Virus genome (UHGV): UHGV-0105863
DNA: 13,122 nucleotides
Strand: one strand, 5' to 3'
Origin: a virus
Shown: positions 6,342-13,072 of the stretch, piece after piece
How positions within the stretch are numbered: position 1 is the stretch's first letter
Layout of the letters: each line of letters opens with the position of its first letter
Program-made: the position numbers and the translations under genes
Notes under the pieces: generated by a model
Told to the model about the DNA's origin: nothing
The model's database searches: none
Seen by the model: only the letters and a program-made list of their open reading frames with translations

Positions 6342-6527
6342 ATGACCATAGAAGAACGCCTGAACAACATTGAGTTGAACCAAACCTTGCTTGACCAGCG
6401 ACTTTCAGATCTTGAGCTTAAAGATCTAGATGCGCAAATATCAGAAGCAGAAGCCAAGCTCTCCAGCTTAAACCACCGTAAGAAGCAAATCCGCAACAGA
6501 ATTACTCAGGGACGCGGAAGCTGTTGA
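6342..6527 (+). CDS. Small coiled-coil protein (61 aa); alternative start at 6333
   Basis: AGGA at 6330-6333, 8 nt before the ATG at 6342. Translation MTIEERLNNIELNQTLLDQRLSDLELKDLDAQISEAEAKLSSLNHRKKQIRNRITQGRGSC has heptad-like L/I spacing. The 3' end overlaps orf69 convergently by 26 nt, so reality is uncertain. Confidence 0.4.
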   Translation: MTIEERLNNIELNQTLLDQRLSDLELKDLDAQISEAEAKLSSLNHRKKQIRNRITQGRGSC

Positions 6528-6711
6528 GGTGGGATGCTAGGTCTCTATCGTTAAAATCAAGGCTGCTAATCATTTCATTGTAAATGGCGTTTTTATCTTC
6601 CATTGGCAGTCTTGAGTAAACCAGACACAGAGCATATTTCAGGGAGTTTAGCTCTTTCTCTAGCTCTTCCTTGCTTGACGTTGTTGACTTAATAAACTGT
6701 TTTTTATTCAT
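6502..6711 (-). CDS. Hypothetical 69-aa protein, translationally coupled downstream of mnt
   Basis: Its ATG (plus 6711-6709) overlaps the mnt stop (ATGA), and AAGGA lies 6 nt upstream inside the mnt 3' end. Translation MNKKQFIKSTTSSKEELEKELNSLKYALCLVYSRLPMEDKNAIYNEMISSLDFNDRDLASHLNSFRVPE is acidic and helical. Confidence 0.6.
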   Translation of the reverse strand: MNKKQFIKSTTSSKEELEKELNSLKYALCLVYSRLPMEDKNAIYNEMISSLDFNDRDLASHLNSFRVPE

Positions 6712-6959
6712 TTTGCATCCTTACCATACATGGTCTTTAGCGTCTCAACATCGTGTTCAAGATCTATCAATCGTGATGCTATAGTTGCAAGGTCTAGTGC
6801 TTGAATGTGTTTATTTTTTTCGGTCCACGCTTCAAGTGCCGCGACCATCTCAGCATTTAATGAACGAGAATTAGCCTCAGCCAGTTCAATAAGACGTTCC
6901 TTTATCTCTACAGGAAGCCTCAGATTCACTTGAGGGTTTTTGTACTTACGATCAGACAT
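6708..6959 (-). CDS. mnt: Mnt-like ribbon-helix-helix repressor (83 aa), maintenance-of-lysogeny repressor of the immI region
   Basis: 83 aa, the same length as P22 Mnt. The N-terminal RHH signature NLRLPVEIKERLIELAEANSRSLNAEMVAALEAW is followed by a helical C-terminus. It is divergent from arc-ant, as in P22 immI, with AGGA 7 nt before the ATG. Confidence 0.85.
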   Translation of the reverse strand: MSDRKYKNPQVNLRLPVEIKERLIELAEANSRSLNAEMVAALEAWTEKNKHIQALDLATIASRLIDLEHDVETLKTMYGKDAK

Positions 6960-6987
6960 CGGCGCATCCTGAATAATTTTTTACCAC

Positions 6988-7016
6988 AGGATATGTAGGT
7001 ATCTATTGACTATCAA
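6988..7016 (-). promoter_or_regulatory. Candidate Pmnt (minus strand): TTGATA, 17-bp spacer, TATCCT
   Basis: The -35 is the reverse complement of plus 7011-7016 and the -10 is the reverse complement of plus 6988-6993. It lies about 20-30 nt upstream of the mnt ATG. The -10 is weak (4/6). Confidence 0.35.
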
Positions 7017-7025
7017 TGCGTACCT
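6997..7025. promoter_or_regulatory. Imperfect 29-bp palindrome AGGTA-n3-ATTGA-CTA-TCAAT-n3-TACCT, candidate repressor operator (Omnt-like)
   Basis: Read directly from the sequence. Centred at 7011, it covers the -35 of Pant and the -35 of the candidate Pmnt. The outer AGGT half-site recalls the P22 Omnt half-site (from memory). Confidence 0.4.
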
Positions 7026-7034
7026 AAATACTAT
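7006..7034 (+). promoter_or_regulatory. Pant-like sigma70 promoter: TTGACT, 17-bp spacer, TACTAT
   Basis: -35 at 7006-7011 and -10 at 7029-7034, about 30 nt upstream of the arc ATG. The -10 is flanked by two copies of ATGCGTACC (7016-7024 and 7037-7045). Confidence 0.55.
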
Positions 7035-7064
7035 GTATGCGTACCACATACAACGGAGGATGCA

Positions 7065-7227: not shown

Positions 7228-7303
7228 ATCAAAACAGTGAAGCCCCAACTGCTGGAACAGTTAGGGCTTCGGTATCGTAAAACCACGCATAGGAATTAAC
7301 GAC
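7228..7303 (-). ncRNA. sar: sar-like small antisense RNA covering the ant ribosome-binding site and start codon
   Basis: A minus-strand promoter sits just inside ant, with a predicted start near plus 7303. The minus-strand terminator is a hairpin GAAGCCC/GGGCTTC (7239-7270, with inner stem AACTG/CAGTT) followed on the minus strand by ACUGUUUUGAUUUCUUU. Predicted length of about 70-75 nt matches P22 sar (about 69 nt from memory). Confidence 0.5.
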
Positions 7304-8227
7304 ATGAAAAGTATAGCAACAGCAGTATCTACTATCAATGTACCATTCCACGGCGCAGAGCTTTATGTTGTCAATCACAACGGCGAACCGTATACCCCAA
7401 TGAAACCTATCGTTGAGGGAATGGGGCTAGACTGGAAATCTCAACATAAGAAGATTTCTCAACGCTTCTCGAAGGGTATGGTGGAAATCACCATACCTTC
7501 TGCCGGTGGGGTGCAAGCCATGATTTGTATGGCTTTACGAAAATTGGCAGCTTGGTTGAACAGCATCAGTCCTAACAAAGTCCGCCCTGAAATCCGCGAC
7601 AAGGTAATCCAGTATCAGGAAGAGTGTGACGATGTGCTCTACGAGTACTGGACTAAAGGCCATGTAGTTAACCCACGCAAAGCTAAAAAGGCGTTGCCGG
7701 GTAAAATCACCACTGAACAGCAGGAAGCCATTAAACAACTCGTCATGAGTCGCGGTCAGTCTCTGCCAAAAGAAAAACAGGCGAAGGCGATGATCACCAT
7801 GTGGTCGTCACTGAAATCCCATTTTGGATGTTCGTACAAAGAAATCAGTGATGAGCAGTTTACCGAAGCACTGTCACTTGCTGCTCGCGTTCCGCTTGAA
7901 GGTGAGTTCATTGGCAAACAAGAGAAGAAAACCAACGAGCTTTCTGCAAAAGAAGCAAACAGCCTTGTATGGCTATGGGATTATGCCAACCGCTCACAGG
8001 CATTATTCCGCGAATTGTATCCGGCGCTAAAACAAATTCAATCGAACTATTCCGGCAGATGTCATGACTGCGGTTATGAGTTCTCCCGTATTATCGATAT
8101 GGCGAGAGACGTTTTAATCAATCACACACGAGATGTTGATATCAATGAGCCAGACGGACCAACGAATCTTTCCGCATGGATGAGACTTAAGAATAAAGAA
8201 TTACCTCCTTCAGTACATAACTACTGA
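7304..8227 (+). CDS. ant: Ant-like antirepressor (307 aa)
   Basis: Lies directly downstream of arc, as in P22 immI. Size is close to P22 Ant (about 300 aa). The N-terminal region resembles the phage antirepressor N-domain by memory. AGGA lies 9 nt before the ATG. Confidence 0.75.
   Translation: MKSIATAVSTINVPFHGAELYVVNHNGEPYTPMKPIVEGMGLDWKSQHKKISQRFSKGMVEITIPSAGGVQAMICMALRKLAAWLNSISPNKVRPEIRDKVIQYQEECDDVLYEYWTKGHVVNPRKAKKALPGKITTEQQEAIKQLVMSRGQSLPKEKQAKAMITMWSSLKSHFGCSYKEISDEQFTEALSLAARVPLEGEFIGKQEKKTNELSAKEANSLVWLWDYANRSQALFRELYPALKQIQSNYSGRCHDCGYEFSRIIDMARDVLINHTRDVDINEPDGPTNLSAWMRLKNKELPPSVHNY
7310..7338 (-). promoter_or_regulatory. Psar-like promoter on minus strand: TTGATA, 17-bp spacer, TATACT
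   Basis: The -35 is the reverse complement of plus 7333-7338 and the -10 is the reverse complement of plus 7310-7315. It is near-consensus and fires leftward across the ant start codon at 7304. Confidence 0.5.
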
Positions 8228-8270: not shown

Positions 8271-8327
8271 TGCCAAAAATTCACCGTAGCCATGCTGCGG
8301 CCATTCCTTGTATCTGGAGCAAATCAA

Positions 8328-10673
8328 ATGACAGATTCAATAAATGCCAATGTTGTAGTGAGTATGCCTTCGCAACTCTTCACTATGGCTCGTTCTTTTA
8401 AAGCTGTAGCCAATGGCAAAATTTATATCGGTAAAATTGACACTGACCCGGTAAACCCTGAAAACCAGATTCAGGTTTATGTAGAGAACGAAGACGGTTC
8501 TCACGTTCCTGTTTCGCAACCAATCATCATTAACGCTGCTGGATATCCGGTATATAACGGACAGATTGCCAAGTTCGTTACTGTGCAAGGGCATTCTATG
8601 GCTGTTTATGATGCGTATGGTGCTCAGCAGTTCTATTTTCCTAATGTGCTAAAGTATGATCCAGATCAGTTTAGGCAGCAGCTTGCAGTAGTTGATAGCA
8701 ATGTATTGATTTCTGGTGTTCCAGCAAAAGATGTTGTAAATGCCAAAACTGGACGAGCACCAGTAGTTATGACTCGAAAAGTTACAGACCTTCTTCTTGA
8801 TGGTAAGGCTGGGTTGCGTAAAAACTTTGGTGCTGTAGGCGATGGTAGTCATGACGATACACAGGCATTTAATGATCTGTGGGATGCGCTTATGGATCCG
8901 ACATATAAACGCCGCGCAATAGAAACAGACGAGGTTGGTCTGCCATTTATGATACAAAAAGGCCCAGCACTTCTAATTGAAAATGGAACGTTTATTTACA
9001 ATGGGCCTGGTCTCAATATTGAAACATCAGATTCATTTGTATTTAACATATCAGGTGAGAGCAGTATTTCAACAAAGATACTTTTACCAGATGGAGTATA
9101 CCTATTCGATTTCGATAATAACCCTGTTCATGCATATCTAGGGAATATGTCAATTCATGGTGGTAAAGGTGCTGTTCGATACAAATCAAAAGAACGATCA
9201 ACTAACAGCATTCACCTTTTCGAAAATCTTCGCCTGTCGAGATACAAGGAGTGTGGCATAGGGAATAATTCAATCGATATGCCGTATTTCCGAGTGAAGG
9301 GATGCATGTTATACGGGGACCCAGCAAGCCAGACTATTGGTATTTGTGTCTCTGGTTACTCTGCTGGCGGCTTCATTGAGGACTGTGTTATCAGCGACAA
9401 TAGATATAATATAAAACTGGCAGTTGGTGATAATGGCGTGGAGCGTAATGGCCCTGCAACGCCTTTCTATGTCTGCAGGAACGACATGTACCGCACGGGG
9501 CGACGAGCGCCATCAGCATCGTATGACATATGGATTGAGCCTGGTGCTACTACCATCAACTCTGGGAGAGGTATTCAGATAATCCAAAATAAATTTGGGC
9601 AAGAAAACCTAATCGCACCAGATACTCATGTTTTGATCGCAGATGCTGCCGCTACAGGGAGCGGGTTAAATCTCAATGGAGATCGCGCTCATATAGAAAC
9701 ACAGTCAGTTGGTTTTGTGTCTGGCTTACGTTTCGAGGGGAATAACGTAAACTCAGCTAATAGTGGATATATTGCCCCTTTCATTCGCTCATTTACGCCA
9801 AACCTTGGAAATAACAAAATAAATGACCTTTATGACAATGACATGCCAGCAAGAATCATAGAGTTCGCGGGTGGCATAACCCAAAGTCAAATGACTAACC
9901 TTTCACGTACCAACGTCTTTAGTGCAGCCCAATGCATTGCGCTTCAGAAGGGTGTTGAACCTAAGTTGTTATCTAACCTTAATGATGTCTTCCGGCTTGA
10001 GGATCCTTTGGGGTTCTACGTCGGGCATCCTCAAGCTCAGGTTTTACCGTCAGGTTCTCAGCAGATTGGATTTGAATTGATCTACTCTGGGCCGACGTCG
10101 ACGATTGGGGTGAGTAACGCAACAAGATTATCGGTAAATAACTCATATGGAGGGATATCGGAAGCAACTGAAATCACAATGACCGCTTCTGATGGCGTGG
10201 CAGTTGCCACTGTTGTTGGCGGACTTGCTGGTAGGAAGCACTGGATTGATTTCGAGCTTAAGCGCGGGACAACAAACCCTGTTGGTTCTGTTGTTGTGGA
10301 GATAATGGATGCTTCCGGGTCAGTTCTCCAACTTCGTCGTATTATTTTAATAGACACTTTTCCACGCTGGCAGAAAGTCGCCATTCCTTATGTTCCAAAT
10401 GAAGACGGTAATATTGTAGTCAAATTCAGATCTAATCTTTATTCGGCTGGAACGGCAACTAACTTTATTGTCGGAAATCTCAATGTTTACAGGAATGAGG
10501 AGCGAGTCAATACAGGGCATAACTCAGGATTGAGGATGCAATGGAATCTACAACATACCGTAAGAGGTACAAGACACGAGTGGTATGACGCGTCAGGTAA
10601 TTTACGCTCCAAAAATGGGGTGCCGAGTGGGGATGCCGATGGGGTAATCATTAGCGCTAACCCAACATTGTAA
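8328..10673 (+). CDS. Tailspike protein (781 aa): P22-type head-binding N-terminal domain fused to a right-handed beta-helix receptor-binding domain
   Basis: Start taken at ATG 8328 ([12 protein letters not shown]...) with GGAG 8 nt upstream; the ORF-track start at 8292 adds 12 residues absent from P22 gp9. The first ~115 residues (..[34 protein letters not shown]...[14 protein letters not shown]......VLKYDPDQ) match P22 gp9 from memory. Downstream is unrelated and contains [19 protein letters not shown], a typical pectate-lyase-fold motif. Confidence 0.9.
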
Positions 10674-10736
10674 AAATTTGATCTTCGCATAGCTAGAAGT
10701 TACTGTATATAAAAACAGCATTGTGAGGTTATAGAC

Positions 10737-10976
10737 ATGATCAGACGCAACATAATTTCGGAGGCTTTCAGAGCCTCCATTTCTATAAATCCTAAAGGTT
10801 ATCAATACCTTTACACGCATTCTTTCATCTCCGAACTACAGAGGATGGGTATCAATTTCTCAGAAGAGGAGGCTAACAACTGGATATCGAGAGAGCAGAC
10901 TTACTTTGTTGACAAAACCACCGACCATAGCGAAAACCGCCTGTGGATGCTGGCCAATATGGGTAGGGTTCTCTGA
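10737..10976 (+). CDS. Hypothetical protein (79 aa) downstream of tailspike
   Basis: ATG with GAGG 9 nt upstream. No recognisable motif. Sits where P22 carries its conversion genes. Confidence 0.45.
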   Translation: MIRRNIISEAFRASISINPKGYQYLYTHSFISELQRMGINFSEEEANNWISREQTYFVDKTTDHSENRLWMLANMGRVL

Positions 10977-11905
10977 TGTGATTTCCATCACCGGCGTCCG
11001 ACTACGTCGAGCAGCTACTGTCCGTTAACTCGATATGCAATGTTGGTCCTAACACATTGTTGCTTGAAACCAGTGGTGGATATGCCGTGGTTGATGTCTC
11101 TCTGAAACTTAAGCAGAGATGTCAGGTGATGGTCTGCTATGAAGCACATAATCAGATAGCGAAGCTTATGGGGAAATCTTTGATAACGGAGGATGGAGAG
11201 GCGATCGAGGGAGAGGCCCTGGATGATGTCACCGTTGCCGTCGTGGTGACGCATATTATCGTGGATGTGAGAAGTGACAGCGTAGCAGTATAAGGCAGAC
11301 CCACAATCAGGGACTACCGATTTTGATTACTCCACCTTTTCATCAAGCCAATCTGCCCACCATTGCATCATTTCTCTGCATTTATCGTAGTTGATGCAAC
11401 ACTATCACACTGTAATAGCTTATTACTGGTTTGCAGACAGGTAGGCATGAACAGATACCTGCGCATGAAGACGGAACTAGTCCAGATGTGATATTTGTGG
11501 TGATCACATACATCATCAACGATGCTCGTTATGGTGAGTTTGATGACTACCCACTGAAGTGAAAATTGTGTTGTGTACCAAATTGCGTACCAAACTAAAA
11601 TCACAAATTATGAAACCCTTGTTCATGGCGGCTCTCAGGGGTGTTGCGCGTAATCGTGAAACAAAAAGGTAGATTGTTGCTTACCGTCATTCATCATTAG
11701 GTTAAATCCGTTATTTCTGCTGTCTGCCAGAGTATCAAATATCACCGTGCTAATCAGCTTTAGCGCGACAATTTGGCAGCGAGTGACAACAGATCATGTC
11801 AGATAAAAATGAGATAGTAGTCACATTTTCTTGCACTTTATTCCAGCCAGTTCATAAGTATTTCCGTAAAAAGAACAGCTATTTGAAACACCTGAGGGTT
11901 TGCTG

Positions 11906-13072
11906 TTGAAACGCCGTCTTATTATTGCTGCTTCTTTGTTCGTTTTTAATTTATCGTCTGGTTTTGCGGCGGAAAACATTCCTTTTTCACCTCAGCCTCC
12001 AGAGATTCATGCCGGGTCCTGGGTATTGATGGATTACACCACCGGTCAGATTCTCACTGCGGGTAATGAGCATCAACAGCGCAATCCCGCCAGCCTGACA
12101 AAGCTGATGACGGGCTATGTCGTGGATCGCGCTATCGATAGTCATCGCATTACGCCAGACGATATTGTCACCGTGGGGCGTGATGCGTGGGCGAAAGATA
12201 ATCCGGTGTTTGTCGGTTCTTCACTGATGTTTTTGAAAGAGGGCGATCGCGTATCGGTACGTGATTTAAGCCGAGGTTTAATTGTGGATTCCGGAAATGA
12301 CGCTTGTGTTGCTCTGGCTGACTATATTGCCGGTGGGCAACGGCAGTTTGTTGAAATGATGAACAACTATGCCGAGAAGCTGCATCTCAAGGATACGCAT
12401 TTTGAAACAGTGCATGGTCTGGATGCACCTGGCCAGCATAGCTCGGCTTATGATTTAGCCGTGCTTTCTCGCGCTATCATCCACGGCGAGCCCGAGTTTT
12501 ATCATATGTACAGTGAGAAAAGCCTCACCTGGAACGGTATCACCCAGCAAAACCGTAACGGGTTATTGTGGGATAAGACCATGAATGTTGACGGCCTGAA
12601 AACGGGCCATACTTCTGGTGCCGGGTTTAATCTTATTGCTTCGGCTGTAGACGGGCAGCGTCGCCTCATTGCAGTGGTAATGGGTGCTGACAGCGCAAAA
12701 GGTCGTGAGGAAGAGGCAAAAAAATTACTGCGTTGGGGGCAACAAAACTTTACTACGGTGCAAATTTTGCACCGTAGGAAAAAGGTCGGTACGGAACGCA
12801 TCTGGTATGGTGATAAAGAAAATATCGCCCTGGGAACGGAACAAGAGTTCTGGATGGTGCTACCGAAAGCCGAAATTCCACATATCAAAGCCAAATATAC
12901 CCTTGATGGTAAAGAGCTCACCGCGCCAATTAGCGCCCATCAGCGGGTAGGGGAAATTGAACTTTACGACCGTGATAAACAGGTGGCGCACTGGCCGCTG
13001 GTTACCCTGGAATCTGTCGGGGAAGGCAGCATGTTTTCTCGCCTGAGTGATTATTTCCACCATAAGGCCTGA
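11906..13072 (+). CDS. dacD: D-alanyl-D-alanine carboxypeptidase DacD (PBP6b), host chromosomal gene
   Basis: Start taken at TTG 11906 (MKRRLIIAASLFVFNLSSGFA signal peptide) with GAGGG 7 nt upstream, giving 388 aa; the ORF-track start at 11900 gives 390 aa. Contains the class A PBP motifs SLTK (SxxK), SGN and KTG. I recognise the sequence as enterobacterial DacD. Confidence 0.9.
   Translation: MKRRLIIAASLFVFNLSSGFAAENIPFSPQPPEIHAGSWVLMDYTTGQILTAGNEHQQRNPASLTKLMTGYVVDRAIDSHRITPDDIVTVGRDAWAKDNPVFVGSSLMFLKEGDRVSVRDLSRGLIVDSGNDACVALADYIAGGQRQFVEMMNNYAEKLHLKDTHFETVHGLDAPGQHSSAYDLAVLSRAIIHGEPEFYHMYSEKSLTWNGITQQNRNGLLWDKTMNVDGLKTGHTSGAGFNLIASAVDGQRRLIAVVMGADSAKGREEEAKKLLRWGQQNFTTVQILHRRKKVGTERIWYGDKENIALGTEQEFWMVLPKAEIPHIKAKYTLDGKELTAPISAHQRVGEIELYDRDKQVAHWPLVTLESVGEGSMFSRLSDYFHHKA

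Follow-up and report, generated by a model that had tools for sequence, protein, structure and literature searches.

The window, i.e., the whole 13,122-nucleotide stretch of virus genome UHGV-0105863 analysed here, is the late-operon end of a P22-like (Lederbergvirus-type) Escherichia coli prophage. Its open reading frames (ORFs) and their translations show that mnt and arc-ant form divergent transcription units, flanked by the ejection-protein genes and by the tailspike gene (8292-10673; Head_binding domain present), which is the gene order of the annotated P22, CUS-3, and SEN22 records. An mnt-like gene, an arc-like gene, the antisense RNA gene sar, and the antirepressor gene ant are all present, and this is therefore an immunity-I (immI) module, whose gene content makes it a member of the P22 immI family. 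The module is of the CUS-3/SEN22 type, and its transcriptional switch spans bases 6988-7052; the repressor roles and transcription starts given below are predictions. The switch is a strongly conserved variant of the classic P22 switch, with another promoter layout and three evenly spaced predicted repressor sites.

The two proteins encoded on either side of the switch both score above the Pfam Arc cut-off of 20.4 bits (Table 1), in line with a preliminary description of this DNA, which had proposed an immI-type switch between divergent Mnt and Arc homologues. The Mnt-like protein joins a ribbon-helix-helix N-terminus to a C-terminal helix ending in ETLKTMYGK as in P22 Mnt, to which it is 32% identical over 79 amino acids (aa; residues 8-80, the C-terminal ...TLK..Y.K motif included), and its best match among solved structures is 1mnt. 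The Arc-like protein, 33% identical to P22 Arc over 39 aa, is encoded by the first gene of the ant operon, and all intact related loci have such an ORF after the switch, 46-53 aa long wherever its start is clear. The strands that read the DNA differ from those of P22: KVKTLRMP here versus PQFNLRWP for the Arc-like protein, and PQVNLRLP here versus PHFNFRMP for the Mnt-like protein. The Mnt strand follows (N/H)PQVNLR(L/M/I)P in all loci of this switch type; its DNA-facing residues Q, N, and R are those of P22 Arc, not of P22 Mnt, and the crystallised Arc F10V mutant has nearly the same strand. Between lineages, Mnt varies in its C-terminal half. The Arc-like strands fall into four classes (KVKTLRMP, KVKSIRFP, (K/S)PSSVRFP, and EPVSVRMP), all of which retain (T/S)-x-R and all of which occur with the same DNA sites. 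No match to either P22 operator (the 21-base-pair (bp) Oarc and the 17-bp Omnt) was found anywhere in the window at three or fewer mismatches, and this absence, together with the difference in the DNA-reading beta-strands, supports the earlier suggestion that the binding specificities have diverged.

To follow the switch across relatives, about 170 related loci (cited below by L numbers) were gathered with Mnt-like and Arc-like protein searches, from E. coli to Photorhabdus and Arsenophonus, and base conservation was taken as the fraction of the majority base in 25 representatives less than 93% identical to each other. Placed in the orientation of the window, these loci share the core GTAGGTATCTATTGACTATCAATGCGTACCTAAATACTATGTATGCGTACCACATACA almost unchanged, and over its 60 bp hardly any base varies, even in loci of Arsenophonus, Phlomobacter, Xenorhabdus, and Photorhabdus whose Mnt is no more than 49-59% identical. 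The switch of CUS-3 is 95.8% identical to the window over the matched part, and the core of SEN22 is identical except for one base in site 2. Since the bases kept in this way include those of the promoter spacer and the start site, which sigma-70 does not read (Table 1), the pattern points to bound proteins.

Two sigma-70 promoters stand back to back in this core, with their -35 hexamers abutting at bp 7011, and we infer transcription starts at ~6981 (minus strand) and ~7041 (plus strand), ~60 bp apart. A promoter scan recovered the rightward promoter (TTGACT-17-TACTAT) exactly where the preliminary description had placed it, and it also recovered the leftward promoter that had been proposed on the opposite strand of the same -35 region; the label "near-consensus" was generous, each promoter matching 9 of 12 consensus positions. 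Taken alone the scan is not significant (3 promoter-like matches versus 2.5 expected), so the consensus match by itself proves nothing, and support for the promoters comes from conservation across related loci. In the rightward -10, T7029, A7030, and T7034 are kept at 0.96-1.00, and 7031 is C or A. In the leftward -10, A6988 (1.00), T6992 (0.96), and A6993 (1.00) are kept and 6989-6991 reach only 0.40-0.64, i.e., T-A-n-n-n-T on the minus strand, with the variants TATCCT, TATTCT, TAATCT, TACTAT, TAACAT, TACCAT, and TAATAT. The TTG of the leftward -35 is present in all representatives, including the 5 of 25 with T7013G (TTGCTA), a change that breaks a palindrome described below and spares the -35. 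The retention of the outer -10 bases and of TTG despite T7013G is the signature of a working promoter, which supports the leftward promoter.

Several further observations touch on these promoters. A leftward promoter placed as in P22, with -10 GATAGT at 7014..7009 and -35 TACATA at 7037..7032, was rejected: its -35 matches at only 3 of 6 positions, and the A2 of its -10 is lost in 5 of 25 representatives (the TTGACTAGC lineages). Three loci (L023, L025, and L067) read TGCTAT for TACTAT and so lack the critical A at the equivalent of 7030, which should silence arc and ant. Read in the minus-strand RNA sense within 6966-6992 of the window, the stretch from the 3' part of the leftward -10 onward (ATCCTG) is complementary to the mnt Shine-Dalgarno region (CAGGAT), and in the equivalent stretch of L008-L090 a stem is retained with other sequences (CCATG/CATGG in L080; CTGTAA/TTACGG in L087 and L008; TTCTTA/TAAGAG in L076). 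The mean duplex energy of the stem is -7.15 kcal/mol for cognate and -5.41 kcal/mol for non-cognate pairs (permutation p ~0.001, the lineages not being independent); a transcript from the predicted leftward start would be without the 5' arm of this stem.

Interleaved with the promoter elements are three same-orientation copies of T-R-C-R-T-A-C-C(-T-A), which end at 7003, 7024, and 7045 and are thus exactly 21 bp apart, a spacing of two helical turns; the unit is asymmetric and 8-10 bp long. The preliminary description had counted two ATGCGTACC copies 21 bp apart on either side of the rightward -10; both are there (7016-7024 and 7037-7045), the only exact copies in the 13-kb window, and what had been missed is the third, degenerate copy another 21 bp upstream. 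In the whole 40-kb CUS-3 genome, TGCGTACC is confined to this locus. A repeat search also returned a tandem 21-nucleotide repeat (6999-7019/7020-7040, 71% identical). Among 5000 dinucleotide-preserving shuffles of 6960-7064, which served as the chance test throughout, none had adjacent 21-mers identical at 16 or more of 21 positions, and 62 had two exact copies of a 9-mer within 30 bp of each other. All three sites are conserved in the representatives: T6996, T7000, A7001, and T7004 of site 1 at 0.96-1.00, C7019 to C7024 of site 2 at 0.92-1.00, and T7038, G7039, C7040, T7042, and A7043 of site 3 at 1.00, with C7044 and C7045 at 0.92. Each site is about the size expected of one ribbon-helix-helix dimer footprint, and the locus has what defines a repeated-site ribbon-helix-helix operator, i.e., at least two short units, helical phasing, and overlap with promoter elements. 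That the switch has this overall architecture is, on the comparative evidence, very probable: its genes, promoters, repeats, phasing, and conservation are seen in the sequences, and what is inferred is where transcription begins and which protein takes which site.

Table 1. Coordinates of features in and around the switch. "Kept" gives the majority-base fraction in the representatives; site roles and transcription starts are predicted
Feature	Position	Strand	Basis or remark
mnt-like gene, 83 aa	6708..6959	-	translation; Pfam Arc 40.1 bits
Shine-Dalgarno AGGA of mnt	6967..6970	-	read from sequence, 7 nt before ATG
Just outside core	6985-6987 and 7053/7055		kept 0.36-0.72
Leftward (Pmnt-like) -10 TATCCT	6988..6993	-	17-bp spacer; promoter scan
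Extended imperfect palindrome, mirror layout of the two promoters	6992..7030		arms 6992-7009 / 7013-7030, 14/18 complementary
Site 1 TAGGTATCTA	6996..7005	+	degenerate copy in leftward spacer, 21 bp upstream of site 2
Rightward (Pant-like) -35 TTGACT	7006..7011	+	promoter scan; kept 0.96-1.00
TTGACTA	7006-7012		kept 0.96-1.00
Leftward (Pmnt-like) -35 TTGATA	7011..7016	-	promoter scan; bp 7011 common to both -35 hexamers
CAAT	7014-7017		kept 1.00
Site 2 TGCGTACCTA	7017..7026	+	rightward promoter spacer; exact 9-mer repeat
CGTACC	7019-7024		kept 0.92-1.00
Rightward (Pant-like) -10 TACTAT	7029..7034	+	17-bp spacer; promoter scan
TATGTATGC	7032-7040		kept 0.92-1.00
19-bp palindrome TGTATGCG-TAC-CaCATACA around site 3	7034..7052		flagged as hairpin by scan
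Site 3 TGCGTACCAC	7038..7047	+	over expected rightward start ~7041; exact 9-mer repeat
TACC	7042-7045		kept 0.92-1.00
ATAC	7048-7051		kept 0.88-1.00 across genera
Shine-Dalgarno GGAGG of arc-like gene	7055..7059	+	read from sequence
arc-like gene, 46 aa	7065..7205	+	translation; Pfam Arc 31.9 bits
sar antisense RNA over ant ribosome-binding site	7236..7302	-	Rfam RF00262, 71.2 bits, gathering score 43, full length
ant antirepressor gene, regulated output	7304..8227	+	Pfam P22_AR_N 152.7 bits, P22_AR_C 98.5 bits

Having located the direct repeats, we examined how they relate to the symmetry of the region. A 29-bp palindrome (AGGTA..ATTGActaTCAAT..TACCT) had been reported in the preliminary description as an operator-like element, and it is indeed present at 6997-7025, centred on 7011, within the longer imperfect palindrome of Table 1; 12 of the 5000 shuffles contained a palindrome at least as good (14 or more of 18 positions). 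As a conserved unit it does not hold up. The two -35 hexamers make up its inner arms, and full pairing of the outer arms (5/5) is limited to the window's own clade, diverged lineages reaching 1-3/5; CUS-3 has AGGTG where the arm reads AGGTA. The palindrome is thus mostly a by-product of outward-facing -35 hexamers and self-symmetric GTAC cores. Under a 21-bp shift and under a mirror about 7011, the same 10 bp of site 1 fall on site 2, so the sole question is whether site 1 matches site 2 forward or reversed. The two matches tie at 7/10 in the window's clade; among the representatives the forward match is better in 9, the reversed in 4, and 16 are ties, with forward ahead in diverged lineages, by 9 to 5 in L169, 8 to 5 in L168 and in L177, 7 to 4 in L176, and 8 to 6 in L014, and in both L012 and L169 site 1 reads TGCGTACCTA.

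The earlier account of palindromes was also incomplete, having overlooked a 19-bp palindrome around the third repeat copy. This element occupies the position of the P22 Mnt operator, and in L034, L037, and L055 it is perfect over 8+8 bp, reading CGCATACA. Compensating changes were looked for in the 25 representatives and none were found: no change at C7045 ever accompanies G7041A, and A7037G is unmatched at T7049. Among close relatives no part varies more than the right arm, and in L074-L077 this arm has been replaced, with the symmetry centre shifted by ~3.5 bp.

Mechanistically, we propose that the rightward promoter would drive the arc-like gene and the sar-controlled ant, and the leftward promoter the mnt-like gene. 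In a lysogen, an Mnt-like tetramer joined via its C-terminal helix would fill sites 2 and 3, identical to each other and situated on either side of the rightward -10, and so shut off arc and ant while the leftward promoter stays free; the weaker site 1 would serve autorepression at high Mnt-like concentration or, alternatively, would let the Arc-like protein, bound there and at site 2, damp both promoters once infection has occurred. Such an arrangement is what a maintenance repressor needs, having to silence ant and yet leave its own promoter open, as established for P22 (summarised in PMC11016777). The assignment of proteins to sites builds on the reading-strand residues of the Mnt-like protein, which are invariant across loci as sites 2 and 3 are, and on the four classes of Arc-like strand, all of which suggests, and by analogy the place of site 3 where P22 has its Mnt operator also suggests, that sites 2 and 3 may belong to the Mnt-like protein. 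Also in favour, ATAG-core variants occur in the two lineages whose Mnt reads ...NLRMP, which differ from each other in the site affected and in Arc class. We regard this explanation as a whole as evenly balanced between right and wrong, and its specific assignment of proteins to sites as tentative, with chances somewhat short of even.

Several observations weigh against this explanation. The region is rich in alternating purine-pyrimidine runs, which inflate pseudo-palindromes. CUS-3 carries an A-to-G substitution in the otherwise invariant TA of site 1, so that site 1 may be dispensable, and site 3 is degraded in L074-L077, where the right arm was replaced. The reach of an Mnt-type tetramer over 21 bp is assumed. 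No natural mosaic separating this Mnt type from this Arc type was found when the Mnt-like protein was searched against viral and genome contigs and the Arc-like proteins (a class-A alignment, class B, and class C) against viral contigs; every Arc-like relative adjoins a PQVNLR-type Mnt and the same switch, and covariation therefore cannot assign the sites. A code relating reading strand to DNA was rejected as a predictor, because Q-N-R strands occur with three unrelated operator types, namely TAGA boxes (P22 Arc), AAGACCACCGTGGTCTT (ST64T/L Mnt), and TAGTACGGTACTA (Emek Mnt). Considered separately, an analogy to the TAGA boxes of P22 Oarc was set aside, the TAG boxes in the window not being conserved across the family. 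Finally, G7020A in site 2 occurs only with the Arc class KVKSIRFP (n=2) and base 7031 tracks the Arc class, two weak correlations that hint at an Arc-like contact in the spacer as in P22.

These correlations would be expected if the work were divided as in P22, the Arc-like protein binding the rightward spacer from site 2 to the -10 and the Mnt-like tetramer binding the 19-bp palindrome only, through half-sites TATGCG and CACATA ~9 bp apart centre to centre, with site 1 auxiliary or vestigial. In the P22 annotation, Oarc lies in the spacer and Omnt just behind the -10, which agrees with these placements; some relatives have a perfect palindrome, the right-arm ATAC is kept across genera, and the mnt-only phages ST64T, L, and ST160 keep a single palindrome. 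The identical 9-mer in sites 2 and 3 is hard to square with two different reading strands, however, and a dedicated palindrome fits poorly with uncompensated changes in its pairs, with a right arm that varies most among close relatives, and with the replaced arm and shifted centre of L074-L077; we consider this division possible but unlikely. As a further possibility, the operator may be tripartite and lambda-OR-like, with both repressors recognising the same three GTAC-core sites in opposite filling order: the Mnt-like protein would prefer sites 3 and 2 (ant off, mnt on), and the Arc-like protein would take site 1 first (mnt off) and then sites 2 and 3 (autoregulation). Three related sites do lie between divergent promoters whose first genes encode two repressors, in the window's clade there is a systematic difference between site 1 and the other two sites, and the arginine shared by (T/S)-x-R of the Arc-like and N-x-R of the Mnt-like strand could read the GTAC core; in addition, in a distant module (L015) one palindrome occurs three times at the same positions and both proteins carry Q-x-K-x-R. 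Yet the reading strands differ here (Q, N, R versus V, T, R), P22 Arc and Mnt have separate sites, a 46-aa Arc-like dimer is without obvious means to cooperate over 21 bp, and all three sites are equal in several lineages, leaving no difference in affinity, so that we judge joint use of the sites quite unlikely.

The preliminary description had itself implied a different arrangement, with the 29-bp palindrome as one operator that a tetramer would bind symmetrically and the ATGCGTACC pair as the operator of the other protein. The palindrome is improbable by chance in the shuffles and is intact, outer arms included, in the window's clade. But its inner arms are explained by the -35 hexamers, TTG being kept when T7013G breaks the pairing; its outer arms pair at only 1-3 of 5 positions in L012, L014, L168, L169, L172, L176, and L177, lineages that have site 1 as a direct copy; the AGGTG of CUS-3 departs from it; and site 2 would need to serve both operators, which together make the arrangement improbable. 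It is more improbable still that there is no operator function at all and that the conservation reflects promoter elements or recent common descent only: promoter hexamers do lie within the conserved block and many loci are close relatives, but spacer and start-site bases outside sigma-70 reading reach 0.92-1.00, this holds across genera whose flanking proteins are 49-59% identical and whose adjacent leaders drop to 0.36-0.72, and neither the exact 9-mer repeat nor the 21-bp phasing is expected of promoters.

Beyond the switch itself, the RNA layer of P22-type ant control is intact, since the sar RNA, a promoter-like site of its own (TTGATA-17-TATACT with an upstream TG, 7338..7310), and a terminator (a 14-bp hairpin at 7270..7239) are all present. 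On the other side, a 69-aa ORF (6502-6711, minus strand) overlaps the mnt-like stop by 4 bp and is probably co-transcribed with mnt-like; it has no Pfam match, and its stretch is ~97-98% identical to phages Emek (orf69) and Kapi1. In two loci (L035 and L046), tandem mnt copies are joined at a short repeat, TTTACCA, with the switch removed between them. At the far end of the window, the ORF at 11900-13072 is a host D-alanyl-D-alanine carboxypeptidase gene (PF00768, 350 bits), and within 10674-13072 the prophage seems to stop a short way past the tailspike gene. Given this host gene beyond the tailspike, and neither tRNA nor integrase in the window, the attachment-site junction is expected between ~10.7 and ~11.9 kb.

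The module is also widespread. Its closest sequenced phages are CUS-3 and SEN22, and the same 151 bp were found in 146 of 5426 complete E. coli genomes, being 100% identical in O104:H4. Carriers include O104:H4 and K1 strains with CUS-3, and the variant also occurs in insect and nematode symbionts. Full-text literature searches found no study of this switch variant.

P22 Arc and Mnt are textbook models of ribbon-helix-helix DNA recognition, and to our knowledge only the P22 operators have been studied. The present switch thus offers a natural experiment in rewiring, in which proteins homologous to those of P22 meet a changed promoter geometry and three phased direct repeats instead of two palindromes. 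It also calls for a correction to the literature, where CUS-3-type ant morons are said to lack arc and to control ant differently: according to the epsilon34 genome paper, arc is apparently missing from CUS-3 and HS-1 (PMC2629481), yet an arc-like gene, small and diverged, is present in CUS-3. If the three sites were shared by both repressors, this widespread immI variant would be a lambda-OR-style bistable switch in a different protein fold, and such shared-site logic may extend to other non-P22 immI types (L015 and 611R6/phiv205-1 show repeated sites). Because the sites are short and sharply defined by conservation, binding and reporter assays should be straightforward.

Compared with known systems, the module resembles P22 immI in gene order and orientation, in its homologous Mnt, Arc, Ant, and sar RNA, in its genome position between ejection-protein genes and the tailspike gene, and in having predicted sites both within the Pant spacer and over the Pant start. 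Two P22-specific features were tested, operator sequence and promoter geometry, and neither was found. The layout had been described beforehand as matching the overlap logic of P22, which is not so: in the annotated P22 record, Pant (14793-14821) and Pmnt (14826-14798) overlap almost fully, each -10 lying over the other's -35, whereas here only the -35 hexamers abut and TTGATA at the equivalent minus-strand place is a -35, not a -10. P22 has two unrelated palindromic operators, a 21-bp Oarc filling the Pant spacer and a 17-bp Omnt after the -10, in contrast to three same-orientation copies of one motif at 21-bp phasing here. The proteins differ as well, the Arc-like protein (46 aa) being without the N-terminal arm of P22 Arc and the Mnt-like reading strand being Arc-like (PQVNLR), unlike that of P22 Mnt.

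The ant morons of CUS-3 and SEN22 have essentially the same switch sequence as the window. CUS-3 (L001/L178, record 6505-6986 and 7286-7534) differs in that its arc-like ORF is unannotated, inside the feature "bsq2", that an extra Cys-rich ORF of ~66 aa lies between arc and sar, and that its own mnt is followed directly, on the downstream side, by a second mnt of the P22 type. This second mnt keeps the 5' flank of P22, and the P22 operators are absent.

More distant modules repeat their sites in other sequences. L015, from an Armatimonadia metagenome-assembled genome, has the same layout upstream of 1501, with three copies of a P22-Omnt-like palindrome, GGACCAC(G/C)GTGGTCC, placed upstream of the -35, in the spacer, and at the start, and L004, L005, L016, and L017 (phiv205-1/611R6 type, Proteus) carry GTGAT..ATCAC palindromes repeated around their promoters. 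The one operator per repressor of P22 may be the exception among immI modules.

Overall, the switch is probably P22-like in outline, with a layout that is nearer to lambda OR or to repeated-site ribbon-helix-helix operators. The latter arrays consist of short repeated units, each bound by one dimer, and direct orientation is possible; NikR, whose half-sites lie two turns apart, spans two helical turns via a separate tetramerisation domain. The MetJ met-boxes, omega heptads, and CopG and NikR arrays differ from the present sites in unit sequence and spacing, and here there are only three units, interleaved with promoter hexamers, and no metal or ligand domain. A likeness to omega-type heptads or NikR-type GTATG/CATAC half-sites was considered for the Arc-like protein and not adopted. 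Like lambda OR, where CI and Cro share sites between PRM and PR, the switch has three related sites between divergent promoters, a maintenance repressor gene read leftward and a small early repressor as the first rightward gene, and one site in or next to the maintenance promoter with two over the lytic-side promoter. The lambda proteins are of the helix-turn-helix type, unlike the ribbon-helix-helix proteins here, and their sites are 17-bp palindromes at mixed spacing rather than asymmetric direct repeats 21 bp apart; both lambda proteins use the same sites, a sharing that is hypothetical here, so that what the two switches have in common is their layout alone.

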